From an uncultured Methanosarcinales archaeon (GTDB lineage Archaea; Nanobdellota; Nanobdellia; Woesearchaeales; UBA12501): DNA of 64,000 bases. The position numbers and the translations under genes were made by a program. This document shows positions 42,904 through 59,585 of this stretch, piece by piece. Each line of letters begins with the position of its first letter. The stretch's first letter is position 1. Where the stretch lies: NCBI GenBank assembly GCA_964343705.1, contig CAYFJX010000008.1, forward strand, positions 447 through 64,446. Reading direction: 5' to 3'. The notes under the pieces were generated by a model. That model saw only the letters and a program-made list of their open reading frames with translations. It had not been told where the DNA came from and made no database searches.

Positions 42904-42962
42904 ATAATATTCTTGTCAGAAAAAGATTTACTTTATAAATGTTCCTGTTTAAAAAAATAATA

Positions 42963-43595
42963 ATGAGTAAAGAGCTTGAAGATGAAAAATATGCTGAGAT
43001 TTCAGGAATTCTCTTAGGAGATGGTTGCATTACTCTTAAAGAGAACAATCCCAAATCAATAAATCGACTAAAAATCAGTCTAAATTCAGTTGATGACCTT
43101 GCTTACATTTACCATGTGAAAAAGTTACTGCAAGACACATGTGGAGAAGAAGCAAAAGTAAAAAATAGAAAGAATGAGAACACAACAGATATAATGATTT
43201 TTAAGAAAAAAGTAGTCTTATTTTTTATACAAGAGTTAGGGTTGCAGATTTCACCCAAATGGGAACGAGCTATTATCCCTGAAAGGTTCATGCAAGAAAA
43301 ACTTGATTTAAAAGTTTTACAAGGATATTTTGACACAGATGGTTGTTTAGTTACTGCAAATAACAATGGAACTATCTACCCTCGATTAGAAATGAAAGTA
43401 TGTCCCTCCCCCATGCAAAAACAGTTTATAGAAATACTGAAAAAATATGATTTTAGGTTTGGTGTTTATGAAATAGGAAATGGAGAAGTTAGAATCCAAT
43501 TGAATGGTAAAGAACAGTTAAGAAAATGGATTGGACTAGTTGGATTTAATAATAAAAAGCATAGTGAAAAAATAAAACGTTTTAATCTAAACTGA
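42963..43595 (+). CDS. free-standing LAGLIDADG homing endonuclease-like protein
   Basis: 210 aa from MSKELEDEKY; motifs ISGILLGDGCI and LQGYFDTDGCL. TTTATAAA box about 28 nt upstream of this ATG, so possibly leaderless. Confidence 0.8.
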   Translation: MSKELEDEKYAEISGILLGDGCITLKENNPKSINRLKISLNSVDDLAYIYHVKKLLQDTCGEEAKVKNRKNENTTDIMIFKKKVVLFFIQELGLQISPKWERAIIPERFMQEKLDLKVLQGYFDTDGCLVTANNNGTIYPRLEMKVCPSPMQKQFIEILKKYDFRFGVYEIGNGEVRIQLNGKEQLRKWIGLVGFNNKKHSEKIKRFNLN

Positions 43596-43605: not shown

Positions 43606-44703
43606 TCAAGCAGCAGGGTTCTTTGGATCAACTGCTTCTTTGTGACCTGGATGTGAGTCATGCTCTGGTTTGTGCTGGGGCTGTTGTTGCTGACCTGCTT
43701 GACCAGATTCCAATTCTTTGTGCGCTTGATCAATAACTTTGTGATCTATCCCTTGGTTTCGTAAGTGTGCAGTTATCTGCTGCTTGCTATGCCCAAGTTT
43801 ACTATATTGATCAATGTACGTTTTGATATGACCGCTTGAGAATTGTGTTGATTTTGTCATGCTACATGGAGTGTGATTCTTACTTTGATGATGTGCAAAG
43901 AAAATGCCTCCACCAATAACAACAACTGCTCCTATAACAAGTAAAATAATCATCCATAAACTTGATCCTTCTTCACTTGATGGCTGCTCGTATGCTTGCC
44001 CAGTTGCTGGAGCTGCAGACGGTGCTGGTTGTGCTGCTGGCTGTTCATATGCTGGCTCAGGAGCAGCAGGTTCTTCATAAGATTCTTCTTCATACACTGG
44101 CTCTGCAGGCGGAGGAGTGTACGGTGCTGGTGCTGCAGGAGGTGGCGTGTATGGTGCTGCAGCTGGTGTAGGTGCAGGAGGAACATAAGGTGCTGCAGGC
44201 GGAGGAGAGTAAGCTTCAGGCTCTTCATACTCTTCTTCTGGTTCTTCATATGCTGGTTCTTGTGCTTCAAACACTGGCTCTGGCGCAGGTGGAGGAGCTG
44301 CGCCACCCACTGTTAGTGTTGTGTCCCCACCAATATCTTGTTGACCACTTTGCATTGTTGCTTTACCTTCAAAAGTAAATGTGCCTGATGCGCCAGCAGG
44401 AATTTTCACTGTGTAGGTAAAATCTGTTGATTCTACTGTACCTGTTAAGCCATCAATAAGTGCTTTTCGAAGATTATTTTTGTCGTTGAGTTTTCCATCT
44501 TCATACATTTCTAGTCCTTCTGGGACAACTTCGTTAAGAAGCAGTGATTGTTCTGATCCTTCTTCAACAAATGATAGTGTTACGGTGATTTCATCTCCAG
44601 GCATTGCTTCTGTTGATGAGAGTGATCGAGTCATAGAGGAAGCTGCCAACACACTTTGTAAACAAAGTATAAATACAATACTAATTATGAGTGTTTTTTT
44701 CAT
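43606..44703 (-). CDS. 365-aa surface protein: signal peptide, one beta-sandwich module, Pro/Ala/Glu/Tyr stalk, TM anchor, cytoplasmic helical tail
   Basis: SP MKKTLIISIVFILCLQSVLA. Module MTRSLSS..GDEITVTLSF..SLLLNEVVPEGLEMY..ALIDGLTGTVEST..MQSGQQDIGGDTTLTV. TM LWMIILLVIGAVVVIGGGIFF. Tail IKTYIDQYSKLGHSKQQITAHLRNQGIDHKVIDQAHKEL. Confidence 0.85.
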   Translation of the reverse strand: MKKTLIISIVFILCLQSVLAASSMTRSLSSTEAMPGDEITVTLSFVEEGSEQSLLLNEVVPEGLEMYEDGKLNDKNNLRKALIDGLTGTVESTDFTYTVKIPAGASGTFTFEGKATMQSGQQDIGGDTTLTVGGAAPPPAPEPVFEAQEPAYEEPEEEYEEPEAYSPPPAAPYVPPAPTPAAAPYTPPPAAPAPYTPPPAEPVYEEESYEEPAAPEPAYEQPAAQPAPSAAPATGQAYEQPSSEEGSSLWMIILLVIGAVVVIGGGIFFAHHQSKNHTPCSMTKSTQFSSGHIKTYIDQYSKLGHSKQQITAHLRNQGIDHKVIDQAHKELESGQAGQQQQPQHKPEHDSHPGHKEAVDPKNPAA

Positions 44704-44704
44704 G

Positions 44705-47700
44705 TTATGCTCCTCCTTGTGGTGGTTTTGGTTTCTTTTTGAAAAATGCTTTGAGCTTATCCATGAAACCTGGCTTTGTTGCTCCTGCTGGGGCTGCTGG
44801 TTTTGCAGCAGCTGGTGTTGCTGGCTTGCCTGCTTCAGGTTTCTTTTTGAAAAATGACTTTAGTTTGTCCATGAAACCTGGCTTTGTTGCAGCTGCACCT
44901 GCTGCTCCTGCAGCCACTGCTGGTTTTGCTGCTCCAGGCACAGGTGGTTTTGCTGGATCTTTAGGCACACCCAAGTCTTTATATATTTTGTCGAGGAATT
45001 TCTGAGGTACACCATATTGTGCAAGGTGTTTGGTCAATTGTGACCTTGTGTAGCCGTGCTGAGAGTAATACTTGATGTAATCAATTATTTTCTTTTTCTT
45101 GTAGTCAGGGATTGCTGCAAGCTTTTTGTTTTCCATGTAATTGTATGCAAATGCTCCGCCGCCTCCAAGTACGCCAAGGATAACACAGATTATAATAATC
45201 CACAGCCAGATTTTTGGTTCTTTTTCTTTTGGAATGTCAAGTATTGGACCACTACCTGTTGGTTGTCGTGGGTAGGTGTCTGGGATTTCTTCGTCTGGTG
45301 CAGGAGGTGGAACATACGCTTCAGGGTCTTCAAGTGGCATGCTTGGAAGTCCGCTTGGTGCGGTTGCAATGCCATCGTCTGGTCGTGCTGGAGCTGCTGG
45401 TGCAGGACCGCCTGGTACACCACAGTCTTGTGGGCAGTTCAGTTGGTTTTCTCCAAATGCTGCTTGACAAAGGCCGTCGCCGCAGATTACTTGTCTGCTG
45501 AGTCGTGAACCTCGGCCGCCACGTCCTCGTCGGCCGCCACCAGTACCGCCTCCTGCTTGGTTGTTTCCACCATCATTGCCACCTTGTTGTTGGACAACAA
45601 CTTGTGGAGCTTTACACTCTCCATTTTGGCAGGTAGTTCCTTCGTCACAAACAACATCTTCTTGCGTGTATCCTTGACCATCACAAGTATATCTTGTGAG
45701 CACATTGTTAGTACATACTGGGTTGTGTATTTCAACACCCGCTGCAGTTACAACACGCACTGCTCCAGTACTTGGAGCTGTACAACCACTTTGTGGTTTG
45801 CATACACCCACAATGCATCCATACTGGCATGCTTGTGGTGCAACTGCTGCTGCTACATTTTCATTACATTGGAATTGGTTAACATTTGCACCGTCACACA
45901 CGTCACGTTCAACACGTAGCTCTTTGGTGTTTGCGTCAAAGTAGCGTACACGATCTTTTTTGTCTTTGTTGTTTGTTGTGTCAAACTCAAAGCAGTATGC
46001 TGTTGCAAAGACTTGGTCAAAGCATGCTGCATTGTTAGGATCTTGGATGGCTACACGTAGCTGGTCGTCATTCTTGCCTCGTAGTTCGTTCACTTTTCCA
46101 GTGCATGCAGCATCAAGACCATCAGGGATACATGACCCAAGGAATTGCCGTACTGGTTCAAGCAGTGCGCCATTGTGGTGCGCTGCGTTAGTAATATTAA
46201 TTGCCAAGCTTTTACAGAGTGGAATCGCTGGATACGGCTTGAGTATGCACTCATTGTTTTCACATGTTTCGTCGCCAGGACAGTCATAGTCTCCTGCGCA
46301 TTGAGCACCAGGTTGTCGAATACCATCACACTCATCTGATGGACATTGTGCACATGCTTGTTCTTGCACTGTTACAAAGTTTTGCTCACTGCACTGGTAG
46401 GATACTTTTCTACAGTTTTCTCCTTCACAGGTTGCAGCTGGGTCAAAGGTTGAAATTTCAGCTGTTGCAAGCCATTGTTGAATCAGCTCTGGCATAAGCA
46501 CTGGTTCTGGTGGAGGTGCTGCTTGACACTGTGCATTGCTACACTGGTTTGCACATGCCTGTGATTGCTTGGTAAGCATGTTTGTTGTTGGATCACAACT
46601 GTACGCGACTGATGAACACCCTGCTCCTTCACAGGTTGGTACTGGCTTGAAGCGCGGTAGTTGTCCTTCAAGGAATTTCTTTAATTCTTCTGGAACAAGG
46701 ACTGGATCTGGGAGTGCTTCGGGAGGTTGCTGAGGAGGTGCACCACCTGCAACAACTTTAATACCATTATCACCACCAATATCAAACTGGCCACTTTGCA
46801 GAGTGTATTTTCCTACAAACTCATGCCATTTGAGTTCTGCATTTTCAGGTATATTTATTTTGTAAGTAAGTGTCTGAGATGAGGGTGGTTCTCCCATCCC
46901 ACCTTCCATAAACAATTTCTTGAAATTATTATTTGCAACGACTTTGTTATCCACTACAAGTTGAACACCTTCTGGAACTTGCTCATTAATAATAAGGGAT
47001 TGTTCTTCAGCAACTTCAGTGATAGTCAATGTAACTGTTGCACTGCCACCTTGTGGTGCGTCAGGAGGTTGAATAGATCTAGTGACAAGGGTACGTGCTG
47101 CCGGGGGTGCCTGAGCACCCTCAACAACTCGAACACCATTGTCACCAATAATACCTTGTTGACCGGATTGTAGTGTATACACACCTGAGAACTCGTGGAT
47201 TTTTAGTTCAGCATCAGCTGGAATCTCCACTGTGTATTGTATATCTTTTGTGCTTGGGGCTTCTCCCATGCCACCTTCCATAAACAATTTCTTGAAATTA
47301 TTATTTTTGACTTGTTTACCATCAACAATTAATTGTAATCCTTCAGGAACTTGCTCGTTGATAATTAGTGATTGTTCTTCACCCACTTCTTCAACATGCA
47401 GTGTTACTGTAACACGTCCTCCCCGTGGTCCGTCAAATGGTTGTATAGAACGTCGTACTGTTGTTGCCTGACCAGGCGGTGGAGGTGGTTGACCACACAC
47501 ACCGTCTAAACATGAGCCTGTTTGACAATCAACATTTTCATCACATTTGCCACCCGGTTCTTGGTGCACTGCACATTTTTTAAAATCACCATCAGGAATA
47601 CAAACAAGACCACTGTTTGCGTCACAGTTAGCATTTATTTTACACATTTCACCATCTCTGCGGTTTCCGTCCCGTGTACAATCATTTACAACACACACTT

Positions 47701-48181
47701 GTTCTGCAGGGCATGCTGTGTCAAGGTTTGCACATCCAGGAGGTGGTTGTGGTGCTTCTGCTTGTTGAATACCAACTGTTAATGTAGCAGGTCCTGCAAT
47801 ATCTTGCTGGCCAGCTTGTAATGTTACTTTTCCATTGAAATTGTACTCGCCTGGTTGTGCATTGTCAGGAATATGAAGTTTGTACGTGAAATCACCTGTT
47901 TCAACAGTACCTGTAAGACCATCAATAACTGCTTTTTTGTAATTATTACTTTGCACAGGATTACCATCAACAAATAACTCAAGGCCGTCTGGAGAATTTT
48001 CATTAATAATTAGAGAAGGTTCCTCACCAACTTCTTCAAAGTGAAGTGTTACTGTGACATCACTACCAGGTGCAGCAGAGTCTGCAGAGAATGAACGCGT
48101 AAGTGTTGACCCAGGTGCAGCTAGTACAAGAGGAACTAGTAATACTACTACAATAATCCACTTTACTAATTTGTCATACAT
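44705..48181 (-). CDS. 1158-aa (1171 from the alternative start at 48220) surface protein: three beta-sandwich modules, Cys-rich modules, TM anchor, repeat-bearing basic tail
   Basis: SP MYDKLVKWIIVVVLLVPLVLA. Three copies of the TVTL..SLIINE.VPEG module. Two P.L.PE...L....PTCEG..C....Y.C modules. TM WLWIIIICVILGVLGGGGAFAY. Tail with YIKYYSQHGYTRSQLTKHLAQYGVPQKFLDKIYKDLG and 2 x KPGFMDKLK.FFKKKP. Confidence 0.85.
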   Translation of the reverse strand: MYDKLVKWIIVVVLLVPLVLAAPGSTLTRSFSADSAAPGSDVTVTLHFEEVGEEPSLIINENSPDGLELFVDGNPVQSNNYKKAVIDGLTGTVETGDFTYKLHIPDNAQPGEYNFNGKVTLQAGQQDIAGPATLTVGIQQAEAPQPPPGCANLDTACPAEQVCVVNDCTRDGNRRDGEMCKINANCDANSGLVCIPDGDFKKCAVHQEPGGKCDENVDCQTGSCLDGVCGQPPPPPGQATTVRRSIQPFDGPRGGRVTVTLHVEEVGEEQSLIINEQVPEGLQLIVDGKQVKNNNFKKLFMEGGMGEAPSTKDIQYTVEIPADAELKIHEFSGVYTLQSGQQGIIGDNGVRVVEGAQAPPAARTLVTRSIQPPDAPQGGSATVTLTITEVAEEQSLIINEQVPEGVQLVVDNKVVANNNFKKLFMEGGMGEPPSSQTLTYKINIPENAELKWHEFVGKYTLQSGQFDIGGDNGIKVVAGGAPPQQPPEALPDPVLVPEELKKFLEGQLPRFKPVPTCEGAGCSSVAYSCDPTTNMLTKQSQACANQCSNAQCQAAPPPEPVLMPELIQQWLATAEISTFDPAATCEGENCRKVSYQCSEQNFVTVQEQACAQCPSDECDGIRQPGAQCAGDYDCPGDETCENNECILKPYPAIPLCKSLAINITNAAHHNGALLEPVRQFLGSCIPDGLDAACTGKVNELRGKNDDQLRVAIQDPNNAACFDQVFATAYCFEFDTTNNKDKKDRVRYFDANTKELRVERDVCDGANVNQFQCNENVAAAVAPQACQYGCIVGVCKPQSGCTAPSTGAVRVVTAAGVEIHNPVCTNNVLTRYTCDGQGYTQEDVVCDEGTTCQNGECKAPQVVVQQQGGNDGGNNQAGGGTGGGRRGRGGRGSRLSRQVICGDGLCQAAFGENQLNCPQDCGVPGGPAPAAPARPDDGIATAPSGLPSMPLEDPEAYVPPPAPDEEIPDTYPRQPTGSGPILDIPKEKEPKIWLWIIIICVILGVLGGGGAFAYNYMENKKLAAIPDYKKKKIIDYIKYYSQHGYTRSQLTKHLAQYGVPQKFLDKIYKDLGVPKDPAKPPVPGAAKPAVAAGAAGAAATKPGFMDKLKSFFKKKPEAGKPATPAAAKPAAPAGATKPGFMDKLKAFFKKKPKPPQGGA

Positions 48182-48204
48182 GGTATCATTGATGAAATGG
48201 TTGC

Positions 48205-51201
48205 TTAGCCTTTCAGCCAAGCTCCAATTGATTGAGTAAGTTTCAAGTCATTCATAGGATCCTTGTCTGCCTTGAGCCACCATCCAATATACATGGATAG
48301 CTCAAGATCACTGATCTTTCCATCACAAGGATCTGTATCTCCTGGAAGTTCACACTTTGCTGGTCCTGCCAGTTGTTTATCTTCTTTTGGAGGTTCAACT
48401 GGTGCTTCAGGAGGTTTTGCAGCTGGCAAGCACACATTGTCTTTACCACATGCAAGTCCATCATCACACTTGGGTTCTTGGTCACGGCAGAACTGGTTCA
48501 AGTTACCTTTGAGTACTGGTTCTTCAGCAGGTGGTTCTGCTGCAGGTTCTTTTGCTTGTGCACCAACACACACGCCACCTTCACACTTGCCGCTTGCACA
48601 AAGGAGTCCTATCTGACATGCTGAGCCATCTCTTCCTTTGCAAACACCATCTGAGCATGCGTTATCAGGACGACATTGATTATCAGATTCGCAAGGAAGC
48701 TGTTGGAATCGTCGCAATTCTAATTTGCCATTGACATCAACACAGGAGTGATAGAAACTATCTTTTCCACCTTCACCCATGCTATCATCTTTGATCGCGA
48801 CAACACTAGCACCAAGTTCATTACATTCATAACCAGTAGTTTGACTGAGCAATCTGATCCAGCTGAGTGCATCACCAACATTAATACATTTGTGTCCAAC
48901 ACCATCAATGTCTTGTAGTGCGCCTTCTTGTTGGCAGATGCCACCTGCTTCTGTAGGCCCTTTGTCATTCAAGTCACCTTCAACACATGCACCGTCTTTA
49001 CAAACAGCACCTACTGATACACAATCAAACTCTTCAAAACCAACTTGGTTATGTTGATTGCAATTACGATCTTGCACAAAGTTTTCTTTACCTTCTGCAC
49101 CACTACACACATCTTCGTATTCTTCATTGAATCCAAACATGACTTTAGAGGGAATAAATGCCTGAGTAGGAAGTAATTCACCACTTGCAGCGTCAAAGTC
49201 AACACACTTACCTTCTTGGGGATATGGTTCACCTGGTTTTGGATCAGGAACAATCACGCATCGTCCATTTTCACAATAGTAAGGTTGGCCAACGCTGTTC
49301 TTATATTGAGCACAATCTACTGGTTGATATTCTAAAACACCCGCGGAACACACAGCCTCATTAAGTTGATTGTGTACACCTTGATCACACACATCTTCAA
49401 GGCGTTGTTCTCCAAGACCCAGAATTGCAACAGCTTTTGTCACCACTTGTTCACTGACAGGAGTGTTACCTTGCAGATTATCATTGTCTTTACATGCAAC
49501 ATCTCCACTACACATGCCATCAACACAAGATAAACTTGCACAGTCAATATTACTATGACAAGACTGCCCAACATCATTAACACACCTGCAAGATTCATGT
49601 GCAACACCAAGTCCTGCGCACTCATCTTTCTTGCCCATCTTATTACAGATTTTTGATACACACTGTCGTCCTTCAGTGCAAAGGTCACTGCCTACTGTCA
49701 TTTCTCCACAGACATTACCTTGGAACGTGTTACACCAGCCAGTATTACACTGGTCATTGGTCATGCAAGCTTCACCAATGTTTTTACCTGCACATTTATT
49801 TTCTAAACAGTTCCTTGTTTTACACATGTCACCTGGGCTGTTAATACCTGGAACAACACCCACAACTTGCTTAACTAGTGAGAATCCATTACATTGTGCA
49901 CCTGCAGGCCGTAACTCACACTCTTTAGTAGTTGGGTTACAGTAATCAAGTACACACTGACCATCTGTTTCACACGCACCGCCTAGTGGTTGTGCTTCAC
50001 AGATTCCTGTTGGTTGTAGTCCTTTCCTATTATCATTAGGATCTACCCATTCCCTTTTACACCTGTTTGATGTACAAGTGTTCTTTCTTCCAATTACTTG
50101 ACATGCTTCACCATTAGCAGATCCAGTACATACACCTGCTACACACTGCCCTGTTTTACACTGGTCAGCATTTTCACATTCTGCGCCAACAGGGTACCAT
50201 TTACACTTGCCACTTGGGTGGTTTCTGTCACCTTCTTTGCTAAATAGTTCACATTTTCCTTCACATTGATCATCTGATTTACATGGCTTACCTTCTTCAA
50301 AAAGTTTACATGTTTTTGGAACATTTTTACCCATGTATGGACAATTATCACTAAGACATTCTTTTTTAGCTTTACATGTTGCTCCTAGTGGTTGCTTTGC
50401 TGCACATGTCTTGGTTGATCTTTCACAGTATTCTGTAGCAGGACAATCCCTATCACGGTTACATGCTGCTCCACTACCAACAAGTTTTGGTGCTTCACCA
50501 ACAACTGGTTCTTCAACAACAGCACCTTCTGCTGCACATGCACCATTATTACAACTGTTACATTGCAAGATTTCTTTTTTAATAAGTCCTCGTTCATCGC
50601 ATGAATATTTAATTACATTACAATTTGCTCCTTGGCAGGTTGGAGTCATAAGTTCTCGTGACGCTCCACCTTGTAAGTATTGCATAAGTGCTGGAGGTAA
50701 GAACGGTCTACCAATCATTGCTTCTTCAAGAGGGGATAATTCAGGTTCGGGAGCAGGTTCTGGTTCAGGGTCAGGTGCTGGAGGAGCTGCTTGGGCAACA
50801 CTAACACTTGTTGCACCTGAAATAGTTGCAGGATCTTTACCAAGTACTTTTGTAACACCTGAAAATGATGCTGGGCCTTGATTAGCAGGTGCAGTTGCAG
50901 TATATTCCAAATCCATATCTCTAACACCATTCATAGCAGTCCGTAACCATTTGATAACATTCCCATTAAGATTTCCGCTTTCTGTAATACCAGACACTTG
51001 CCAGCCTGCAGGAATTGTTTCTTCAATAATAACACCAGATGGAACATTTGCTTCATCAACATCCATTTTTAAAGTGACTTTCATAGAGCCCTGTGGAACT
51101 AGGGTTGGCGTACTTACTTCTCGTGAAACTGATACAGCGTGTGCTGCAGGAAGTACCACTAGTAGTACCATTACTACCATTATTAGTTCACGAGTTCGCA
51201 T
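48205..51201 (-). CDS. 998-aa secreted Cys-rich protein with N-terminal beta-sandwich module and C-terminal dockerin-like repeats
   Basis: SP MRTRELIMVVMVLLVVLPAAHA; divergent module VSREVS..GSMKVTLKM..GVIIEETIPAGWQV; about 100 Cys; C-terminus DTDPCDGKISDLELSMYIGWWL..DPMNDLKLTQSIGAWLKG. Confidence 0.85.
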   Translation of the reverse strand: MRTRELIMVVMVLLVVLPAAHAVSVSREVSTPTLVPQGSMKVTLKMDVDEANVPSGVIIEETIPAGWQVSGITESGNLNGNVIKWLRTAMNGVRDMDLEYTATAPANQGPASFSGVTKVLGKDPATISGATSVSVAQAAPPAPDPEPEPAPEPELSPLEEAMIGRPFLPPALMQYLQGGASRELMTPTCQGANCNVIKYSCDERGLIKKEILQCNSCNNGACAAEGAVVEEPVVGEAPKLVGSGAACNRDRDCPATEYCERSTKTCAAKQPLGATCKAKKECLSDNCPYMGKNVPKTCKLFEEGKPCKSDDQCEGKCELFSKEGDRNHPSGKCKWYPVGAECENADQCKTGQCVAGVCTGSANGEACQVIGRKNTCTSNRCKREWVDPNDNRKGLQPTGICEAQPLGGACETDGQCVLDYCNPTTKECELRPAGAQCNGFSLVKQVVGVVPGINSPGDMCKTRNCLENKCAGKNIGEACMTNDQCNTGWCNTFQGNVCGEMTVGSDLCTEGRQCVSKICNKMGKKDECAGLGVAHESCRCVNDVGQSCHSNIDCASLSCVDGMCSGDVACKDNDNLQGNTPVSEQVVTKAVAILGLGEQRLEDVCDQGVHNQLNEAVCSAGVLEYQPVDCAQYKNSVGQPYYCENGRCVIVPDPKPGEPYPQEGKCVDFDAASGELLPTQAFIPSKVMFGFNEEYEDVCSGAEGKENFVQDRNCNQHNQVGFEEFDCVSVGAVCKDGACVEGDLNDKGPTEAGGICQQEGALQDIDGVGHKCINVGDALSWIRLLSQTTGYECNELGASVVAIKDDSMGEGGKDSFYHSCVDVNGKLELRRFQQLPCESDNQCRPDNACSDGVCKGRDGSACQIGLLCASGKCEGGVCVGAQAKEPAAEPPAEEPVLKGNLNQFCRDQEPKCDDGLACGKDNVCLPAAKPPEAPVEPPKEDKQLAGPAKCELPGDTDPCDGKISDLELSMYIGWWLKADKDPMNDLKLTQSIGAWLKG

Positions 51202-51228
51202 TTTGAATCACCTTGAGTTTCATGTTTT

Positions 51229-53715
51229 TCATTGTTTTGACCATAGTTCAATTGCCATAAGCAATTCCATATCATCCACTTGATTATTTGACCATTTATC
51301 TATAAACATAAGTAGTTCCATATCATCCACTGTACCATCATTGCTTGTATCTGCTGGAGAGACTTGCTGTTCTGGTGCTGGTTCAGGTTCTGGTGCTGCC
51401 TCTAAACAGACACCATTAGCACATCCATTTGCACAGTTTTCAGGCTGGCTGAAAATATGATTATCTCCTGCATTACACACATACTCAGTAAGTTGACGTG
51501 CAGTAATACACCTGTCTGTCAAAGTCTGCCGTGAACCTTGGTATACACCAGTAGTGGTTCCTACTACAAAAGTATCTGGGCCACCGCGAATATTTACATT
51601 AGTATTATCACTATCTACACAACCTTGAGGAGCAGGCTCAGGTGTAGGAGTCGGCGTTGGTGTTGGATCAACAACATGGTCATCTAGCCTTTCTAGTCGA
51701 TCTCTAAATTCTTCTGGGTCTGGACGTTCAACATCAACTATGACTTCTTGAGCAGCTTCACGTCGGCATACCCCATCATAACAACCATGCTCACAGGGTA
51801 TACGAACATCAACAGTGTCTCCGTCCTTACATGCAGCTTCAATAAGATCAGAACCATCACAAGCATCAGGGATGACAAGGTCACCTTTGGTTACTGTTCC
51901 TTTCTGATGTATAGTCACTCCATTGTCTGAATCTGAACAGGAATCCAATAGTGCAAGAGCTGCCCGTGGATCAGGCACATCTGCTTGGATTGGGATTGCT
52001 GGATGAGCAACTTCAGGTTGCTGTGGGGTAGGTGGTTCATTAACTGGTGCAACATCTTCCCTGAATTTTCGTGGATCAGGTTGTACAACTTGTTGTGGAG
52101 GAGGAGGCACCTCAGCTAGCTTTACACATTTTTTGTTTTTACATACATTACTTCCACATTGATTATCTCGTTCACATGGACCATTTGTTTTTACAGGAGC
52201 ACGGCAAGTATATCGCTTAGACCTAACCCATTTACCACTCCTATATCCTCGCCTACAAACAAGGCCAGTCCTACAAAGTTCGTTCCCTAATGCATTAATA
52301 CACGGTCCCCTATTACCCACTGGTTTTCTACAGGTTGTTTTTTTAGATCTACCCCAGTAGTACCTTTTTGTTTTCTTACTTTTGTAATAAGAACGTCGAC
52401 AAACTAGCTTAGCAGGATCTTGAGAACATTCAGATGTTTGTTTACATGCTTGTTTTTCTTTTTTACCACCTGCTGCTCCACGAGCAGCTACTTCTGCTGC
52501 TGCTCGAGCTGCAGCATCTGCACGTTGTGCAGCTTCAAGTTCTTGTCTTCGCTTATCTTGATCTTGCCTCATTGCTTGTGCCATTGCTGCAACACCAGCT
52601 CCAGCATTACCCACCCTACTTGCAAGAGCTGCAACAGCTGCAAGAGCAGCTGCGTTTTCATCAAGTGAAGCAAAAGCTCCTTGGTTTATACTTCCTTTTA
52701 GTGGGCCATCAAGCATTGTTTTGTAATGATCAAATTGTCGAATACCCATTTGACTGTGTGAGACGCGAACTCCTGGACGTTTTATTGTGCCATCTTCAAC
52801 TGTCCATTCAAGAATGTCAAATGCATCATAATCAGTTCCATACCTTTTTGTCCCATCTGCGTTTCTCTGACCAGTTTCTCTCTTTTTTCGTGCAGTCACA
52901 ACTACTAGTGCGTTGCCTCCAACAGGATTAAAATGTTCTTTGTTTACAGCAAGACGAAGTATGCTTGGTGAGTTTTCATCTTTTATTAACCCACTAAGGC
53001 TGTGCCACCACACTGGATTGTTTTGCTCGTCTAAACCAATAATGTATGCACTATTACCATCTACACCAAGAGTGTTTTTAGGTGCCATTCCTGTTGTTGA
53101 AATAACAAATGTTACTTGGTCCTTGTTTGCTTTAGGTTCTATATTGTATCTAATATATTGGAACATTTTAGATTTGTCTTTTCCAGGACCATCCTGGTTT
53201 AGTCCAAATTTAAGATTTGTTTCAAACAGAGTGTCATGCACATCGCCTCTACCACCACAGTAAGGGTCTTTCCACCCTTTAGCTAAACAGACACCTTCTC
53301 TACAATCACCATCATGTTCGCAATACCTATCATTTCGTGCAAGACTTCTGCATTTTTTTGTGCTTCCTGCACGGTTTCTTCTACAGGTGAGATCTTTAGC
53401 GCATTCAGAAGGAGTGTTACATAATTCATTTCTTTGTTTTAACCGCAAAGCATCTGCGCCAGGTGCGCTACGTTGCACAGGTCGTTGTTGTGCTGCCATT
53501 TGTGCTCCAACCTGGAAACCTGCCTGTGCCCCTGCACTTATTCCAGGCGTACCAACACCTACTCCTGGTGCACGAACTTGCTGACCAGTAATAGCAGTGT
53601 TTATTTCCTCGCCCCACACCTGATACAGTGCAAGCAGACCTACAAGTACAATTACAAGAACCATGTACCTATCTAGTTTAGGCTTCGCTTTTTTTTGTGA
53701 TCTCTTTTTTGCCAT
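51229..53715 (-). CDS. 828-aa secreted protein: TM + ITGQQV, Cys knots, Cys-free beta domain, Ala/Arg/Glu helix, Cys-rich modules, C-terminal dockerin-like repeats
   Basis: N-terminus KKAKPKLDRYMVLVIVLVGLLALY..NTAITGQQV; C-terminus DTSNDGTVDDMELLMFIDKWSNNQVDDMELLMAIELWSKQ (EF-hand-like DxSxDGxVDxxE loop). Confidence 0.85.
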   Translation of the reverse strand: MAKKRSQKKAKPKLDRYMVLVIVLVGLLALYQVWGEEINTAITGQQVRAPGVGVGTPGISAGAQAGFQVGAQMAAQQRPVQRSAPGADALRLKQRNELCNTPSECAKDLTCRRNRAGSTKKCRSLARNDRYCEHDGDCREGVCLAKGWKDPYCGGRGDVHDTLFETNLKFGLNQDGPGKDKSKMFQYIRYNIEPKANKDQVTFVISTTGMAPKNTLGVDGNSAYIIGLDEQNNPVWWHSLSGLIKDENSPSILRLAVNKEHFNPVGGNALVVVTARKKRETGQRNADGTKRYGTDYDAFDILEWTVEDGTIKRPGVRVSHSQMGIRQFDHYKTMLDGPLKGSINQGAFASLDENAAALAAVAALASRVGNAGAGVAAMAQAMRQDQDKRRQELEAAQRADAAARAAAEVAARGAAGGKKEKQACKQTSECSQDPAKLVCRRSYYKSKKTKRYYWGRSKKTTCRKPVGNRGPCINALGNELCRTGLVCRRGYRSGKWVRSKRYTCRAPVKTNGPCERDNQCGSNVCKNKKCVKLAEVPPPPQQVVQPDPRKFREDVAPVNEPPTPQQPEVAHPAIPIQADVPDPRAALALLDSCSDSDNGVTIHQKGTVTKGDLVIPDACDGSDLIEAACKDGDTVDVRIPCEHGCYDGVCRREAAQEVIVDVERPDPEEFRDRLERLDDHVVDPTPTPTPTPEPAPQGCVDSDNTNVNIRGGPDTFVVGTTTGVYQGSRQTLTDRCITARQLTEYVCNAGDNHIFSQPENCANGCANGVCLEAAPEPEPAPEQQVSPADTSNDGTVDDMELLMFIDKWSNNQVDDMELLMAIELWSKQ

Positions 53716-53716
53716 G

Positions 53717-56098
53717 TTACTTTAGTTGTTGTTCTTGTGCGTGTTGTTTTATTTCGCCAAAGAAGAGTGGCATCCTAGATTTAATGCGAGCAATTTGTTC
53801 CTTGTCACTTCCATCAAATAATCCAGGCAAGTGTTTTCGAATAATAGACTCAATAACTGCCTCACCAATTTCATCTTTGATGTTATTCTTTGCTAGCCAT
53901 ACACCCAGCTCACGAGAATGAGCAAGACCCATACCAACAAGAACCTCACCAACCGGATCAACTTTTGTAGTTAAGCCCACTTTGTATTCCATTTGACGAG
54001 CCCACGGACCAGCAAGAGGTTCAACTAACTTTGTGATTTCTTTACTGTTTTTCATAAGACGAGCAGTCGGCCTACCCCAATAATGGTAACCAGACAAGAC
54101 AAGCCTGTCAAGTTTTTCATCTGCGTATTTGTTGCTTGCGTCTGTTAGACGATCTGATAAGAGACCTTGCCGGTTTAATTCTGTACAGATTACACTTGCC
54201 ACAGCACATTTACCATCAGTACAAGTGGCTTTACATTCAACAGCTGATCTACATGACGCACCAATATCTTTTTTTGCAGCACACTTTTTACGGTTACAAT
54301 AAAGAGTGGATTCACAATCAGCATGCTGAGAACATTTTTGCCCTGCTCTCTTTTTTGCTGGTGCGGGAGGGGGTGTTCCTTGTTGTTGCTGTTGTTGTGG
54401 TGCTGGTTGTGGTTCTGCTTGTTGTCTTTGTTGACAGGTACCATCCTTACACACATGCATTCTGCTTTTACATTGTTTTGTACTATAACATGATTGTCCT
54501 TCTTCTGCTTGGGGAGCGCAAGCACCATCAGTACACAAGTTAGAATTACATTGCCTATGAGTTACACATGGTTTACCCGGACGTTCGCGTCGCTGGCACT
54601 TCTTACCTCGATTAGTTTCTTTACAATACAAACTATGTTCGCACTGAGCATCTAGTTCACATGGCTTATTATTTTTAATTAATTTAAATGATCCTTTTGG
54701 CCAGCAGGTTCCAACACCATACATGTTTATTTCAGCGCAGTGATTAGATGAACACTGACTATTTTCACTACAAGAATCACCTAATTGACCACGTGAAACA
54801 ATGCAATCAATTTTCCCTCTTCCAGAACCTTTTGAAAATCCTTCATCACAGTGGTAACTAACTTGGCGTCCTTGTCGTTGTTCACGAGCAACACCATTAC
54901 GCCGCGCTGGCTGTCCTCGGGTGACACACGCACCGTCAACACAGACTTTTCCTAAAGAGGCACAATCAATCCTTTTTGATTCACGCTTTCCATTTTTACA
55001 TACTCCTTCTGCAAGACCTTCTGGTTCATTTTTTGTAGGTGTGCAGCTATCAGAAATTGCTCGTGTGTCAGCAAACACATACGATCGAACTTCTGCTTGC
55101 TTGTTTGTATTTCCTCTGCCTGCATCTTCGTCTCTACAGTTAGCCTTTTGCTTACACTGTCCTAAATAACAGAATCCACTACTGCATTGCGTGTTTCGTA
55201 CACATGATTTGCCATTGCCAATTTTTGACGCACACACTTGTGCTTTGTCAAGTTTAAACTGGTTTCTTTTTGCGCCTCCTGAATACAATGGCCACCTACA
55301 AATTTGGTTGCCTGTACAATCAGATTCTTCATAACACTTGTCAATACTGTCAATGTTTACAGCCGCTGCTTGCACTTCAGGTACTTCTTCAGCAGGAGGT
55401 GGTTGTGGAGGAGGTGCTTGAACTTCTGGTTGTTGGGGAGCATGCCGAGGAGCTGGTTCAGGTTGTGGTTCTGGTACTTCAGCAGCTAGTCCTACGAGTG
55501 GAGCGTCTTGACACTCACCATTAACACAGTTACAATCTTCTTCTCCAATACGAAGATCTCTGTCATCACATGACACATATCCTCGCTTGCCTGATTCAGC
55601 AGCAATAACATAATTATCGTCGATACAGTATGATCTGAAGTTTTCTCTTTTACCACCATTGTGAGTAAAAATAATATTACCCGGATTGTTTTCATCAAAG
55701 ACACATCGTTCCCCAACAAGAAGCATATTTAGTTTTGGAGGTGCACCGCCAGGTTGTGAACCAGTAGAACAAGAATTTCGTTTTGCATTTTCATTAGTGA
55801 TAGTTTCAGCAATAGTAAACTCGCCTGCTTGCACTGTTGAAACACCCACACAACCGCTACCATCACACCTACATTCTATGTCTGCAACAGCTAATCCTGA
55901 CACAGATGGTTCTTCAACAAGCACAATTTCGTTTGATTCCAGTAAGAAAAGACTTGCAGCCATTAGTGCGAGTACAGCAACAAAGAATAGGGTTTTGTCT
56001 TTGGGTAGAGAGGGCTTTGCCTGTTTAGAATATACTTTATGCCTCTTCCGAGCAGCCCCCTTTTTTGCGTGCTCTTTTTTTACTTTTTTATCTACCAT
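53717..56098 (-). CDS. 793-aa secreted Cys-rich protein with a 156-aa Cys-free C-terminal domain shared with the next gene
   Basis: N-terminal TM LFFVAVLALMAASLFLL then SVSGLAVADIEC; Pro-rich linker; many CX5-6C..G.C knots; C-terminal CTELNRQGLL...LPGLFDGSDKEQIARIKSRMPLFFGEIKQ. Confidence 0.85.
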   Translation of the reverse strand: MVDKKVKKEHAKKGAARKRHKVYSKQAKPSLPKDKTLFFVAVLALMAASLFLLESNEIVLVEEPSVSGLAVADIECRCDGSGCVGVSTVQAGEFTIAETITNENAKRNSCSTGSQPGGAPPKLNMLLVGERCVFDENNPGNIIFTHNGGKRENFRSYCIDDNYVIAAESGKRGYVSCDDRDLRIGEEDCNCVNGECQDAPLVGLAAEVPEPQPEPAPRHAPQQPEVQAPPPQPPPAEEVPEVQAAAVNIDSIDKCYEESDCTGNQICRWPLYSGGAKRNQFKLDKAQVCASKIGNGKSCVRNTQCSSGFCYLGQCKQKANCRDEDAGRGNTNKQAEVRSYVFADTRAISDSCTPTKNEPEGLAEGVCKNGKRESKRIDCASLGKVCVDGACVTRGQPARRNGVAREQRQGRQVSYHCDEGFSKGSGRGKIDCIVSRGQLGDSCSENSQCSSNHCAEINMYGVGTCWPKGSFKLIKNNKPCELDAQCEHSLYCKETNRGKKCQRRERPGKPCVTHRQCNSNLCTDGACAPQAEEGQSCYSTKQCKSRMHVCKDGTCQQRQQAEPQPAPQQQQQQGTPPPAPAKKRAGQKCSQHADCESTLYCNRKKCAAKKDIGASCRSAVECKATCTDGKCAVASVICTELNRQGLLSDRLTDASNKYADEKLDRLVLSGYHYWGRPTARLMKNSKEITKLVEPLAGPWARQMEYKVGLTTKVDPVGEVLVGMGLAHSRELGVWLAKNNIKDEIGEAVIESIIRKHLPGLFDGSDKEQIARIKSRMPLFFGEIKQHAQEQQLK

Positions 56099-56130
56099 TC
56101 TTTTTTTTATGTGTTGTTTTTTGCTTTTAC

Positions 56131-56144
56131 CATTTATAAAGTTT
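56131..56144 (-). promoter_or_regulatory. BRE/TATA-like box (minus-strand AAACTTTATAAATG) upstream of the 793-aa gene
   Basis: Lies about 35 nt upstream of the ATG at 56098. The same AAACTTTWTAAA core occurs upstream of genes starting at 33097, 35328, 5185, 59506 and 62615. Confidence 0.4.
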
Positions 56145-56146
56145 GT

Positions 56147-59100
56147 TTATTTTTTGCTTTGTTTTTGCTCCATTGCATATTGTTTTATTTCCCCATAGAA
56201 TAGTGGCATTCTAGTCTTAATCCGTGCAATTACTTCTTCTTCTGTGCCATCAAATAAGCCAGGAAGATAAGTACGTAGGATTGTTTCCATTGCTTCTTCA
56301 CTAATCTCTGATTTTGCCATGCCGTTTTCTACAAGCCAGACACCAAGTTCGTGTGAAAAGTCTTCTGCAATACTCAAGACAACTTCACCAACCTGATCTT
56401 CTTTTTTGGTGACTCCCATTTGATGTGCTACATAGCGGCCCCAAGCTAGACCAACTGGTTTTACAATCTCTGTTATGTCGCTTGATTTTTTCATAAGACG
56501 TGCTGTAGGCTTAGCACCATAATGATACCCAATCATATTGTACTTGTCCAGTTTTTGATCTGCAAAGTCAGCACTAGCTTTATGATGAGAATCAGGCATA
56601 AAACCTTGCCTGTTTAGCTCGGTGCAAACCACCTTACATTTTCCATTTTGACATCCTTTGGTACATTCAGCACCTTCACTACATGAAGCTCCCGTTGTCT
56701 TTTTTGCTGCACATTTTTTATTTGCACAATATAACCCTGCATCACAATCAGTGTGTGCAGAACATGACTCTCCTGCTTTCTTTTTTGGTGGAACATAACA
56801 TTTGTTGTTACGACACGTACCTGTTGAACAATCACCTGTTGTAGCACAATAACTATTTGGCGGAGCTTTGAAGTTATGACATGTCTTAGGAGCACCTTGT
56901 TGAGCTGGTCGACAAGAGTTGTAATTAAAATTCCAATCTTTACATTCATCATCAGTATTACACTCCCGTGGACCAGGTTTGTCCTCGCAAACTCCTTTGA
57001 ATTGTCCTTGCACTTTTGTTCGTTTACATTGTTTGTTTCGATCATCACAGTCCGGACTTTGCACACATTGTGAGTCTTCATGCACATCGAGACAGCTGGT
57101 TTCTTCTGTGTAACATACTTGGTTTTCACCACATTGATGACTGTATAAACATTTTTTAGAACACTTGTTGTTGTTACATTCCATAGGAGATTTGCAATCA
57201 GACTTTGCCTCACAATATTCACCTGCTTCCCCTGGAACAGGCCTACAAAGACGAGATAAAACAGCAGGATCATCTCCATACTGAATTAGATCCATACTAC
57301 ATGTCGCGCGACCATCGCAATCATCGTCTGTCACACATTGAGGTTGACCTCGGAATGAATAACACATACTTTCATGACATCCTTCACCTTCATTACAGTC
57401 ATCATCAGAAGCACAACCCTCATCAAGAACAGGTGTTGTTCCACCTTCTGTACACAGTCCAACAGTTGGATTACATGCAAGACCTGCATTTCGGTCACAG
57501 AGATCATTGATTACATCACATTCTTCACCTTCTCCAAGTTCACCTGGGCCACCAATGAGTCCGAGTGGTTCTCCACCTTGCATTGCTCGTACACCAGGTT
57601 CCCCTACAACAATTGTTGCTTGCATACTTTCCATTCCTTCATGAGGAATGCAGTAGTAAGGGAATGTTCCTGCAGTGTCAAAAGTGTGAGTAAATGTTGC
57701 TGATTGTGCCATCCAATCAGCTTGATCAGAACCAGAATCAAAACTACCATCTCGTGCAGTCACTGTATGTTTTGAGACATCATTATTAGTCCATACTACT
57801 GTGTCACCGACGTTAATAGTAAGTTCTTGAGGAGTAAAAGTAAAACTTTCAATAGCTATTTGATGTGTTTCCGCTTGATTACCTAAAAGCTGTAATTGAC
57901 CTTGTGCACATACACCACCTGCTTCGAGATTACATACACCACTTGCACAGTTACGGTTTTCACTACAATCCCCACCATCTTCAATAGCAACGCAAACACC
58001 GCCTTCACAAATATTTGATGCACACCTATCTGATGATGGACATGCTTGACCTGTTGCAATAAGTTCATCACCTTGCTCTGGTGGTTGATCTGGTGCTGGA
58101 GGTGGTTGATCACCAGGAGGTTGATCCCCCGGGGGTGCACCATCTGGAGCTGGTGGAGCACCGATTGCATTAGGGTCACCAATGCCAATACTTTGTGCAC
58201 CAAAGATGTTAAACTGGCCAGATTGTAGTGTAAAAATTCCTGAGAATGTGTACCAGCCTGGTGCAGCGTCAAGAGGAACTCTCACTGTGTAAGTAACTTC
58301 TTGTGACGAGGGAGCTTCCCCTATGCCACCTTCCATGTATAGTTTTCTGAAGAGGTTGTTTTCAACCGGCGCATTGTTTACAACTAATTGTAATCCTTCA
58401 GGCACTGTATCAGTAATAACAAGGGATTGTTCTTCACCTTGCTCATGAATAGCTAGTGTAACAGTAAACTCTCCACCAAGTGGAACAAATGCATTAGACA
58501 TTCGTCGTGTAACATAACTAGAATCTAGAGGAGGAGGTATTTGAGATGCTGCTGCCCTACATGATTTTATAAGAATTTGATACGTTCTTCCAACAGCGTC
58601 AGTGTAGTCACGTGCACTGCTTACAAGACAAACACCACCATCACATTCTGCGTCTGTTCTACATTCTGATTCCGCACCAATTTGTAAACAACGCAGATTG
58701 TAACATCCTTGTCCTTCTGCACATTGATCATCAGTTCTACATTGTCCGTCTGGAACAGGTGGTTGATCTTGTTGTTGTACTTCTGGAGGTTGTTCAGGCT
58801 CGCCTGGTTGTGCTGCAACACACACTTTCTCCTGACAGGTTAAACCATCTCCACAATCATCAACATACTCGCACGCGCCACCTGCAAGAACAGTATAACA
58901 GCGACGGCCAAGACCATTCATTTTATCTACACAGCCTTTGTTAGCATCAGCAACAGTGCAGTCTTCGTTTGAATCACACCGCAGAAGATTAGTACAGTCA
59001 CCATCTTGACAGCCACATTTTATTATGTTTATTTGCGCGTCTTTTCCAGAACAAACATTTTTAATAAGTTTTTTTGACGACGGTACTGTTTGATAATTCA

Positions 59101-59506
59101 TGTCACTACAGCCACTTTTAAGACCTTGAAGATTACCATTGGCAAGCGTCAATGAAACAATGCCATTTTGCGAGGAACATGCTTGACCTTGTAAAAGAAA
59201 ACTTCTGAGTGTGCTTGCAGGTTTTTTAGTTACTGTTGCACACGTTGTTTTTTTGGTTGCTTTTTGTGCTATTTCAAAGGGCCCTGTTTGGCCAAGGAGC
59301 ATAACCCCACTTGTTTGTGCAGCGTTAGCACTGCATTCCGCATCAGGACGTGCAATCACTTGCCCAGTGATCCCTACTGGACTGTATATAACTGAAATTG
59401 CTCCGAAAACAACAATAAGAAACGCTGCAATGAGTGCAGGATTATTATATCTGGACAGAGTACTCTGAAGTCTACCAACTAATCCCCTTTTTTGTGGTTT
59501 TTTCAT
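56147..59506 (-). CDS. 1119-aa secreted modular protein containing a cupredoxin (amicyanin/plastocyanin-like) domain
   Basis: N-terminus KRGLVGRLQSTLSRYNN-TM-VGITGQVI. One beta-sandwich module (about 58178-58513). Cupredoxin at about 57602-57868 with ligand pattern H(KHTV)...C-I-P-H-E-G-M. C-terminal CTELNRQG domain (about 56150-56626). Confidence 0.85.
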   Translation of the reverse strand: MKKPQKRGLVGRLQSTLSRYNNPALIAAFLIVVFGAISVIYSPVGITGQVIARPDAECSANAAQTSGVMLLGQTGPFEIAQKATKKTTCATVTKKPASTLRSFLLQGQACSSQNGIVSLTLANGNLQGLKSGCSDMNYQTVPSSKKLIKNVCSGKDAQINIIKCGCQDGDCTNLLRCDSNEDCTVADANKGCVDKMNGLGRRCYTVLAGGACEYVDDCGDGLTCQEKVCVAAQPGEPEQPPEVQQQDQPPVPDGQCRTDDQCAEGQGCYNLRCLQIGAESECRTDAECDGGVCLVSSARDYTDAVGRTYQILIKSCRAAASQIPPPLDSSYVTRRMSNAFVPLGGEFTVTLAIHEQGEEQSLVITDTVPEGLQLVVNNAPVENNLFRKLYMEGGIGEAPSSQEVTYTVRVPLDAAPGWYTFSGIFTLQSGQFNIFGAQSIGIGDPNAIGAPPAPDGAPPGDQPPGDQPPPAPDQPPEQGDELIATGQACPSSDRCASNICEGGVCVAIEDGGDCSENRNCASGVCNLEAGGVCAQGQLQLLGNQAETHQIAIESFTFTPQELTINVGDTVVWTNNDVSKHTVTARDGSFDSGSDQADWMAQSATFTHTFDTAGTFPYYCIPHEGMESMQATIVVGEPGVRAMQGGEPLGLIGGPGELGEGEECDVINDLCDRNAGLACNPTVGLCTEGGTTPVLDEGCASDDDCNEGEGCHESMCYSFRGQPQCVTDDDCDGRATCSMDLIQYGDDPAVLSRLCRPVPGEAGEYCEAKSDCKSPMECNNNKCSKKCLYSHQCGENQVCYTEETSCLDVHEDSQCVQSPDCDDRNKQCKRTKVQGQFKGVCEDKPGPRECNTDDECKDWNFNYNSCRPAQQGAPKTCHNFKAPPNSYCATTGDCSTGTCRNNKCYVPPKKKAGESCSAHTDCDAGLYCANKKCAAKKTTGASCSEGAECTKGCQNGKCKVVCTELNRQGFMPDSHHKASADFADQKLDKYNMIGYHYGAKPTARLMKKSSDITEIVKPVGLAWGRYVAHQMGVTKKEDQVGEVVLSIAEDFSHELGVWLVENGMAKSEISEEAMETILRTYLPGLFDGTEEEVIARIKTRMPLFYGEIKQYAMEQKQSKK

Positions 59507-59535
59507 TATCCCGTTTAAAAATAGAGCTATTTCCT

Positions 59536-59550: not shown

Positions 59551-59585
59551 TTTTGGTGAATAGAAAGTGAAAAGAAGAGCCTAAT

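Follow-up and report, generated by a model that had tools for sequence, protein, structure and literature searches.

Dockerins and the tails of two archaeal surface proteins

Dockerins are modules of 60-70 amino acids (aa) consisting of two segments of about 22 residues, each of which comprises a 12-residue Ca loop followed by a helix. The pairs they form with cohesins are the textbook modular glue of bacterial surfaces and a much-used engineering tool. Type I dockerins (PF00404; CelS 2mte, CelD 1clc, XynY 1ohz) are C-terminal appendages present on diverse secreted enzymes. Non-cellulosomal cohesin and dockerin modules are also already known in archaea (Archaeoglobus fulgidus 2xdh; ANME archaea, PMC9012536), where they serve as docking domains on surface or secreted proteins other than cellulases and are found by standard models. 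Here we describe a C-terminal tail carried by two proteins of 828 and 998 aa (p828 and p998), which are encoded by adjacent genes in a stretch of 64,000 nucleotides from an uncultured Methanosarcinales archaeon (contig CAYFJX010000008.1; the whole stretch is called the window below). The tail shares its C-terminal position and part of its architecture with dockerins, and belongs to a one-loop family of about 42 residues.

On balance, we lean towards regarding the tail as a compact, Ca2+-stabilised docking or retention tag. The basis of this reading is family membership, the conservation of the Ca ligands, the C-terminal use of the tail on multiple cargo proteins, the predicted fold and the genomic linkage to DUF11-like modules; from these we infer Ca binding, the docking function and the identity of the partner.

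Sequence and anatomy of the two tails

The C-terminus of p828 is ...SPADTSNDGTVDDMELLMFIDKWSNNQVDDMELLMAIELWSKQ and that of p998 is ...CELPGDTDPCDGKISDLELSMYIGWWLKADKDPMNDLKLTQSIGAWLKG, as correctly quoted in a first-pass annotation of this DNA. When all the six-frame open reading frames (ORFs) of the window are searched, each tail finds the other as its best match apart from itself (E 0.005 and 0.0018); the match is colinear and full-length, and BLASTP gives 36% identity over 45 aa. In p828, the sequence DTSNDGTVDDMEL matches the PROSITE pattern PS00018 (D-x-[DNS]-x-[DENSTG]-[DNQGHRK]-x-[LIVMC]-x-x-x-[DE]-[LIVMFYW], a 12-residue loop), as does no other site in the six frames of the window. 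The duplicated segments of p828 are VDDMELLMFIDKWS and then VDDMELLMAIELWS, with 10/14 residues identical. The annotation had read them as a duplicated EF-hand loop: the first segment does hold a full PS00018 loop, but the second repeats the first only from loop position 8 onward, and hence contains the last five loop positions and the helix. Since this is all that is repeated, the tail amounts to one complete "F-hand" and a truncated copy rather than two. The same two-segment layout had been ascribed to p998, and the family model presented below recognizes it there. The p998 loop, however, does not fit PS00018, since it is a 13-residue variant with P-C inserted, and the second segment is degenerate, with Lys at the acidic position and a 3-residue insertion in the turn.

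The AlphaFold2 (AF2) model of the tail, obtained with the family alignment, shows a pLDDT of 95.6 and a pTM of 0.75, and consists of a loop (residues 1-14), a helix (15-26), a turn (27-31) and a second helix (32-44). As residues 1-14 are coil, there is no entering helix, and the loop is single. No hydrophobic segment was found in either of the window tails.

At the DNA level, the first 15 bases of the two repeats in the p828 tail are identical (gtggatgatatggaa), and Met occurs in both repeats at the position where the tail family has Phe. This identity and the shared Met point to a recent internal duplication, gene conversion or co-variation of the two helices.

Conservation and distribution of the tail family

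When the 45-aa tail of p828 was used as the query in a HMMER scan of 1.84 billion representative proteins, 43 proteins besides p828 were matched at E <= 1e-3, most of them with about 50% identity across the whole tail and at the C-terminus of the protein. A hidden Markov model (HMM) built from 33 foreign tails, the window tails being left out, matches exactly two of the window ORFs, namely the tails of p828 (E 2e-18, model positions 3-44) and p998 (E 1.3e-8, model positions 1-45); both matches end at the stop codon, and the next one has an E value of 2.6. Since a family HMM built without them matches both, the tails lie far beyond chance, and on the sequence evidence they are a genuine conserved C-terminal module, with the EF-hand-type Ca loop and the internally duplicated helix segment that had been proposed for them.

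The consensus of the family (alignment A2) is h-P-[AG]-D-T-N-G-D-G-x-V-[SD]-D-F-E-L-L-x-Y-I-D-x-W-x-x-G-x-V-x-D-F-D-L-L-x-A-I-D-x-W-A-x-G. The Asp at loop position 1, the Glu at position 12 and both Trp residues are invariant in the 35-sequence alignment. The tails are about 42 aa long in the family and 42-45 residues long in the window. Their internal duplication involves a segment of 13-14 residues, V-x-D-[FML]-[ED]-L-L-x-x-I-x-x-W, which reads VSDFELLxYIDxW and then VxDFDLLxAIDxW in the family consensus. PS00018 is fitted once in 60 of the 87 distinct tails and twice in none of the 87; the 13-residue "D-x-x-P-C-D" loop of the p998 type is present in 11/87, and a pair of Cys residues bracketing the loop, as in p998, in 22/87. 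In the subfamily containing p998 this Cys pair is disulfide-competent and staples the loop.

It might be supposed that low-complexity acidic or Leu-rich C-termini resemble one another by chance, given that the window tails match no curated family. The probability of this explanation is negligible: it is refuted by the HMMER family, by the invariant loop and Trp positions of a set of 87 distinct tails from archaea and bacteria, and by the E values that both window tails obtain with the window-free HMM.

When 185,579 species genomes were scanned with a pattern, 23 loci were obtained, which are restricted to four genomes: an unclassified "Methanobacteriota archaeon" metagenome-assembled genome (MAG) with 9, two Altiarchaeota MAGs with 8 and 5, and a bacterial MAG with 1. 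The counts in the three archaeal MAGs (5-9) are lower bounds; the scan was performed with an 8-sequence alignment, the full 35-sequence alignment being too diverse. The 23 loci contain 28 tail ORFs, several of the genes occurring in tandem, and the distance between the end of the tail and the stop is 0-5 residues (16 in the bacterial one). Metagenome loci contributed another 19 tail ORFs.

Other routes led to little or nothing. A word-index homology search with the 68-aa C-terminus returned no candidate, and phmmer searches of the PDB with single tails gave weak EF-hand matches only in the case of p828 and nothing in that of p998. Neither Pfam nor NCBIfam has a model of the tail family, and no publication on a one-loop 42-residue family was found, including in the literature on dockerins and on Altiarchaeota and DPANN archaea.

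Cargo proteins and use of the tail

The proteins bearing the tail are highly diverse. The cargo includes Peptidase_C25, GH114, InhA-MAM, beta-helix/NosD, CarboxypepD_reg, PKD, subtilase (S8), LTD and CARDB domains, as well as SNase, a PHB-depolymerase-like esterase, Amidase_2 and adhesin-like proteins; in the tail ORFs of the four genomes, the cargo domains belong to 48 different Pfam families. The complete ORFs (e.g., P0011, P0012, P0018, P0020, P0021, P0042 and P0044) have a signal-peptide-like N-terminus and no other anchor, as read by eye rather than scored systematically. In two bacterial proteins, a Pfam cohesin is fused to the tail. The named members of the clusters are called "hypothetical protein" (Altiarchaeota), "cohesin domain-containing protein" (a bacterium), "PEGA domain-containing protein" (Desantisbacteria) and "PKD repeat protein", and the name "dockerin" is not among them. 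The presence of the tail on many secreted enzymes and adhesin-like proteins, with many paralogues per genome, bears out the dockerin-like use suggested in the first-pass annotation. One of the tailed proteins is a secreted N-acetylmuramoyl-L-alanine amidase (Amidase_2, E 1e-22) encoded at positions 4874-5623 of locus L013 in Ca. Altiarchaeota KR13_N1.mb.66, which could be a surface-displayed anti-bacterial lytic enzyme.

The C-terminal use of the tail on multiple cargo proteins fits a docking or retention tag, and it also fits a sorting signal. The tail might thus be a C-terminal sorting, secretion or envelope-binding tag, which is read by an export or processing machine or binds an S-layer glycan or lipid. 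Its strict C-terminal position and the many paralogues on unrelated cargo in each genome are indeed reminiscent of CTERM signals and of the C-terminal domains of the type IX secretion system (T9SS) type. However, it has neither the hydrophobic helix nor the basic tail of the PGF-, PEP-, LPXTG- and other CTERM signals, and no match was obtained between the NCBIfam sorting-signal models (PGF-CTERM, PEP-CTERM, LPXTG and other CTERM models) and the window tails or five short tail proteins, so the tails do not coincide with another known sorting signal. A confidently folded Ca-loop domain is predicted in the model, and the tail is internal or tandem in P0003, P0006, P0017, P0034, P0036 and P0040, which is untypical of a processed signal. 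We therefore consider a sorting tag quite unlikely.

The beta-sandwich modules and their linkage to the tail

A beta-sandwich module of 116 aa is present in 7 copies in five proteins encoded in the window: three in p1171, one each in p365, p1009 and p1119, and a divergent one in p998; none was found in p793 or p828. Given this census, the candidate partner modules that the first-pass annotation had placed on five other proteins belong in fact to four others and to p998 itself. The AF2 model of the p365 module (pLDDT 92.4) gave as its top Foldseek match the CLIPPER (DUF11) domain 9ifr (E 1.2e-5, TM-score 0.72), which is also the best PDB sequence match of the module. Cohesins appear only from rank 17 (E about 3e-4, TM-score 0.54-0.69), behind CLIPPER, YcnI, Spo0M, C3 MG domains, TRAP subunits and BslA, and none is present among the PDB sequences matched by the module profile. 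Pfam DUF11 (PF01345) matches the window modules below threshold (E 0.018 in p1119), and homologous modules lie above the DUF11 cutoff of 24.6 bits (P0012, 30.9; L019, 35.5; L005, 26). A homology search with the module profile returned only P0002. Because they are DUF11/CLIPPER by fold, by sequence and by the Pfam assignment of their homologues, the modules are not cohesins, contrary to the cohesin-type partners envisaged previously, and are DUF11/CLIPPER-like stalk domains.

An Arg residue invariant in 7/7 window modules is aligned to the first-strand Lys of 9ifr, which we take to be the isopeptide Lys-715 on the assumption that a tag shifts the numbering of the deposited chain by 2 residues. 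Since Arg replaces the isopeptide-forming Lys, no isopeptide bond is expected in the window modules, which would, to judge from the alignment, be an isopeptide-less subfamily. In bacteria and archaea, DUF11/CLIPPER forms stalks of fibrillar adhesins, and some DUF11 domains are devoid of the isopeptide bond (bioRxiv 10.1101/2025.04.25.650565).

The HMM of the window modules detects modules in many of the tail proteins. There are 16 proteins having both, and in 14 of them the tail follows directly on the last module (gap of -2 to +4 residues). A pair of genes is kept between loci L019 and L029 with 48-50% identity: the first encodes an anchored protein with a signal peptide, DUF11-like modules, a linker and a transmembrane (TM) anchor, and the second a small secreted protein with a tail of the P-C type. 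This pair parallels the position of p365 and p1171 beside p998 in the window. At L005, in a bacterial MAG, the gene for a cohesin-plus-tail protein is followed by that for a two-module protein. The fusions and the conserved gene pair show that tail and module are linked, not that they bind each other.

The first-pass annotation had proposed a scaffold in which anchored module-bearing proteins capture tailed ones. In such a scaffold the tails are the equivalents of dockerins and the beta-sandwich modules those of cohesins, with p365 and p1171 (also p1009 and p1119) capturing p998 and p828, and the dual proteins may chain head-to-tail. The linker-free fusion of module and tail, the anchored multi-module and tailed secreted gene pair with its counterpart in the window, the arrangement at L005 and the occurrence of cohesins among the structural neighbours of the module all speak in its favour. 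Nevertheless, the modules are stalk domains by sequence and fold, Pfam finds no cohesin match, the tight linker-free junction resembles a structural dyad more than a receptor-ligand pair, and for most of the tail proteins no module is nearby. The proposal is supported in part, though not in its cohesin component, and we regard the scaffold as doubtful. The dyad in question is that of X-module and dockerin (type II; 2b59, 5g5d), in which an Ig-like module lies linker-free on the N-terminal side of a Ca-binding helical module, as in 14 of the 16 dual proteins; there is no sequence relationship between the two systems, however, and 813 residues separate the module from the tail in p998.

In a more specific and likewise unlikely version, the tail and the Arg-type DUF11/CLIPPER-like "GW" module would form a new, cohesin-independent docking pair, in which the TM-anchored module proteins (p365, p1171, L019-552, L029-518 and P0002) would be the receptors and the one-loop tail the ligand, and the module-plus-tail proteins would be chained head-to-tail.

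Comparison with dockerins and EF-hands

Like the tail, type I dockerins have an EF-hand-like 12-residue Ca loop without an entering helix, the helix beginning at the Glu or Asp of loop position 12, and both show an internal duplication, antiparallel helices and occasional fusion to cohesin-bearing proteins. The tail differs from them in its length (about 42 versus 60-70 aa) and in having one complete Ca loop instead of two: its second repeat contains loop positions 8-12 only, a 5-residue turn takes the place of the linker helix, and each helix ends in an invariant Trp. With the canonical EF-hand (PS00018; Pfam EF-hand_1/5/6/8) the tail shares the loop consensus D-x-[DNS]-x-[DN]-G-x-[VI]-x-x-x-E, but its loop is not preceded by a helix, each module has only one loop, and the context is that of an extracellular C-terminal tag. 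Unlike the archaeal cohesin and dockerin modules described above, the window tails and modules are not found by standard models.

The similarity of the tails to true dockerins and to calmodulin is limited to the loop. When 35 tails were scanned alone with Pfam, the matches, all below threshold, were to EF-hand_1 (12), EF-hand_5 (11), EF-hand_8 (8), EF-hand_6 (7) and Dockerin_1 (2, best E 0.028). The family profile matched EF-hand loops of the calmodulin type in the PDB (E 1e-5), and no dockerin is among its best 60 matches. In Foldseek, the nominal top match of the tail model was a dockerin, 2y3n_D (E 2.2, TM-score 0.52, not significant), and more dockerins are present in the top 50. The dockerin architecture assigned to the tails in the first-pass annotation thus fails on three counts: no curated model matches, there is one Ca loop, and the length is about 42 aa. 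We conclude that the tail is neither a Pfam nor an NCBIfam dockerin, and is dockerin-like in use and half a dockerin in build.

Several results weigh against a docking tag. Pfam detected no dockerin model in the window tails at E <= 10, nor any dockerin in 10 tail-bearing proteins at E <= 0.1, and the best NCBIfam match was dockerin_GC with an E value of 0.16, in one relative only. With hhalign, the alignment to the three type I dockerins CelS, CelD and XynY, the sequences of which were rebuilt and then verified against the PDB, covers 16 loop columns with a probability of 32%, a figure little better than the 14% obtained with the calmodulin control. For the tail model, Foldseek returned nothing from the PDB at E < 2. 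Two-site dockerin geometry is absent because the second segment is devoid of loop positions 1-7 (and in p998 also of the acidic residue). As regards a possible receptor, Pfam (PF00963, E <= 1) found no cohesin in the seven proteins of the gene array to which p828 and p998 belong, and an HMM made from the two cohesin-plus-tail proteins found none in the six-frame ORFs of the window (64 kb of genome); in the archaeal and metagenome loci, this two-sequence HMM gave one marginal match only (L036, E 0.006). The Pfam dockerin, EF-hand and cohesin searches suggested by the first-pass annotation thus gave neither dockerin nor cohesin in the window proteins, and EF-hand matches below threshold in tails of the family. 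The DUF11-like module is missing in about 55 of 71 tail proteins, and such modules occur in archaeal surface proteins as generic stalk domains (10.1101/2025.04.25.650565). Lastly, p828 is perhaps already anchored, and "retention" would not be needed in its case because its N-terminus may already anchor it.

Another explanation starts from the single loop. EF-hands nearly always work in pairs, and each tail has one complete loop; two tails might therefore dimerise, as a Ca-dependent self-association module, into a four-helix, two-site unit cross-linking their carriers. The tandem double tails of the short proteins P0003, P0006 and P0017 would be in line with this, and so would the fact that neighbouring genes are often both tailed (loci L006, L012, L013, L022, L034, L036 and L038, and also p828 with p998). 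The AF2 monomer is nevertheless compact and confident, and monomeric enzyme cargo would gain little from dimerisation, which makes self-association very improbable.

A docking or retention tag, the explanation towards which we lean, would work as follows. The tail would be a small extracellular binding module, probably stabilised by Ca2+, through which the carrier binds non-covalently to some other component of the surface, so that anchorless secreted proteins are kept at the cell surface or joined to other surface proteins; the logic would be dockerin-like, in a distinct half-sized variant. In the window, p998, which lacks an anchor, and the distal end of p828 would be fastened by their tails to a surface assembly encoded by the array. 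Since p998 carries a classical signal peptide (..AAHA/VS) but is otherwise free of hydrophobic segments, it would be the protein most in need of such a device. The first-pass annotation had stated that neither protein has an anchor after its signal sequence: this holds for p998, but the hydrophobic stretch of p828 may, as far as its sequence indicates, be an uncleaved N-terminal anchor, because it is preceded by a long basic segment and an obvious cleavage site is missing. If p828 is anchored N-terminally, its tail would be at the distal end. The DUF11/CLIPPER-like modules of p365 and p1171, both of which have the C-terminal TM segment and the module that had been attributed to them, are the leading, if unproven, candidate receptors.

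The Cys-rich array and its surroundings

The genes of p828 and p998 belong to an array of seven genes having the same orientation and nearly abutting (Table 1). Their products are large Cys-rich proteins (4-8% Cys), apart from p365. In p365 and p1171, a signal peptide is combined with a TM segment towards the C-terminal side; in p828, p793, p1119 and p1009, the N-terminus is basic and followed by one hydrophobic segment. The gene content of the window is archaeal (an A-type ATPase, an H+-pyrophosphatase and an SMC gene interrupted by an intein), and metagenome contigs of ENA project PRJEB17505 hold identical copies of the array region.

Table 1. Positions of the array genes, of their modules and of other features in the window
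Feature	Position	Strand	Description
tRNA	29747..29845	-	99 nt
p712	33196..35334	-	beyond the SMC gene
SMC gene	35413..40542	-	1709 aa
LAGLIDADG_2 ORF	42939..43595	+	free-standing endonuclease; adjoins the 3' end of the array
Array	43606..62615	-	seven genes
p365	43606..44703	-	signal peptide, one DUF11-like module, Pro/Glu-rich linker, TM segment, cytoplasmic domain
p365 TM segment	43888-43974	-	residues 244-272
p365 module	44302-44640	-	DUF11-like
p1171	44705..48220	-	1158 aa from the ATG of the gene callers; signal peptide, three DUF11-like modules, Cys-rich region, TM, cytoplasmic tail
p1171 cytoplasmic tail	44705-45140	-	
p1171 TM segment	45140-45220	-	residues 1001-1027
p1171 modules	47768-48109, 47120-47464, 46748-47092	-	DUF11-like
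p998	48205..51201	-	998 aa; signal peptide, divergent DUF11-like module, about 800 aa of Cys-rich knots (7.8% Cys), tail; no TM anchor
p998 tail	48208..48354	-	residues 950-998; Cys-stapled "D-x-x-P-C-D-G" 13-residue-loop subtype
p998 module	50791-51135	-	residues 23-137; divergent DUF11-like; module HMM E 2e-5
p828	51229..53715	-	828 aa; basic N-terminus, hydrophobic segment (16-36), Cys-rich modules, Ala-rich probable coiled coil, two CxDSDN-type Cys modules, tail
p828 tail	51232..51360	-	residues 786-828; EF-hand-type loop DTSNDGTVDDME at 51316-51351, then helix, turn, helix
p828 tail DNA repeats	51232-51330	-	
p793	53717..56098	-	N-terminal TM segment, Cys-rich regions; no module, no tail
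p793 C-terminal domain	about 53720-54223	-	common to p1119
p1119	56147..59506	-	N-terminal TM, Cys-rich regions, one DUF11-like module, cupredoxin, C-terminal 165-aa domain common to p793
p1119 C-terminal domain	about 56150-56650	-	common to p793
p1119 module	58175-58519	-	DUF11-like
p1009	59586..62615	-	N-terminal TM, N-domain common to p1119, one DUF11-like module, Cys-rich knots
p1009 module	61476-61817	-	DUF11-like

Taken as a whole, p828 retrieved only itself in a word-index search of 5.8 billion proteins, and no Pfam family was found in it. A similarity between its beta-rich middle part and part of p1009 was seen by eye, and phmmer did not confirm it. In p828 (residues 40-46), p1119 (44-50) and p1009 (43-49), the N-terminal hydrophobic segment is followed by an I-T-G-[QK] motif, which is possibly a processing site.

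The array proteins have several other domains in common. A C-terminal domain of about 165 aa starting with C-T-E-L-N-R-Q-G is shared by p793 and p1119 (mutual E 1.7e-55) and has no Pfam match, and p1009 and p1119 share an N-terminal Cys-containing domain of 185 aa (E 6e-49). Residues 549-634 of p1119 form a cupredoxin of the plastocyanin/azurin type (PF00127, E 3.5e-12) inside a giant Cys-rich surface protein, which suggests a redox or copper role at the cell surface. On the cytoplasmic side, the tail of p1171 contains K-P-G-F-M-D-K-L-K-x-F-F-K-K-K-P in two copies, and a helical motif of about 40 aa is common to p365 (residues 273-365) and p1171 (E 2e-6), with a weak RecX_HTH2-like Pfam match (E 0.042).

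The G+C content of the array (positions 44001-62000) is 0.41-0.47, as compared with 0.33-0.38 in the surrounding DNA, a difference that could be due to amino-acid composition (Cys, Gly, Ala and Pro) or to a foreign origin. The endonuclease ORF next to the array (LAGLIDADG_2, E 7e-9) is present at the same spot on independent metagenome contigs. In the SMC gene, the intein is located near the N-terminal ATPase motif (Intein_splicing, E 8e-28; LAGLIDADG_3, E 6e-16). Pfam finds no match in p712, an eighth Cys-rich protein (5.3% Cys) with a hydrophobic segment at its N-terminus; it is probably part of the surface-protein repertoire to which the array belongs. The tRNA, which scored 44.8 bits with Rfam and was missed by ARAGORN, is probably an intron-containing archaeal tRNA.

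Significance of the tail family

Non-cellulosomal cohesins and dockerins being known in archaea, the one-loop 42-residue family is a variant absent from Pfam and NCBIfam, in other words a half-sized relative of the dockerin with one Ca site that both collections missed. The tail HMM provides a handle with which dozens of "hypothetical" surface proteins can be annotated and the receptor sought, and a Ca-switchable tag of 42 residues would be attractive for protein engineering. The family would become far more interesting if the receptor of the tail turned out to be the DUF11-like module; were tail and module such a docking pair, they would constitute a modular system for surface assembly and exo-enzyme display in uncultivated archaea (Altiarchaeota and the window lineage) and some bacteria. 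A docking function of the tail, if real, would account for the retention of anchorless enzymes and giant Cys-rich surface proteins on the cells of these poorly known archaea.

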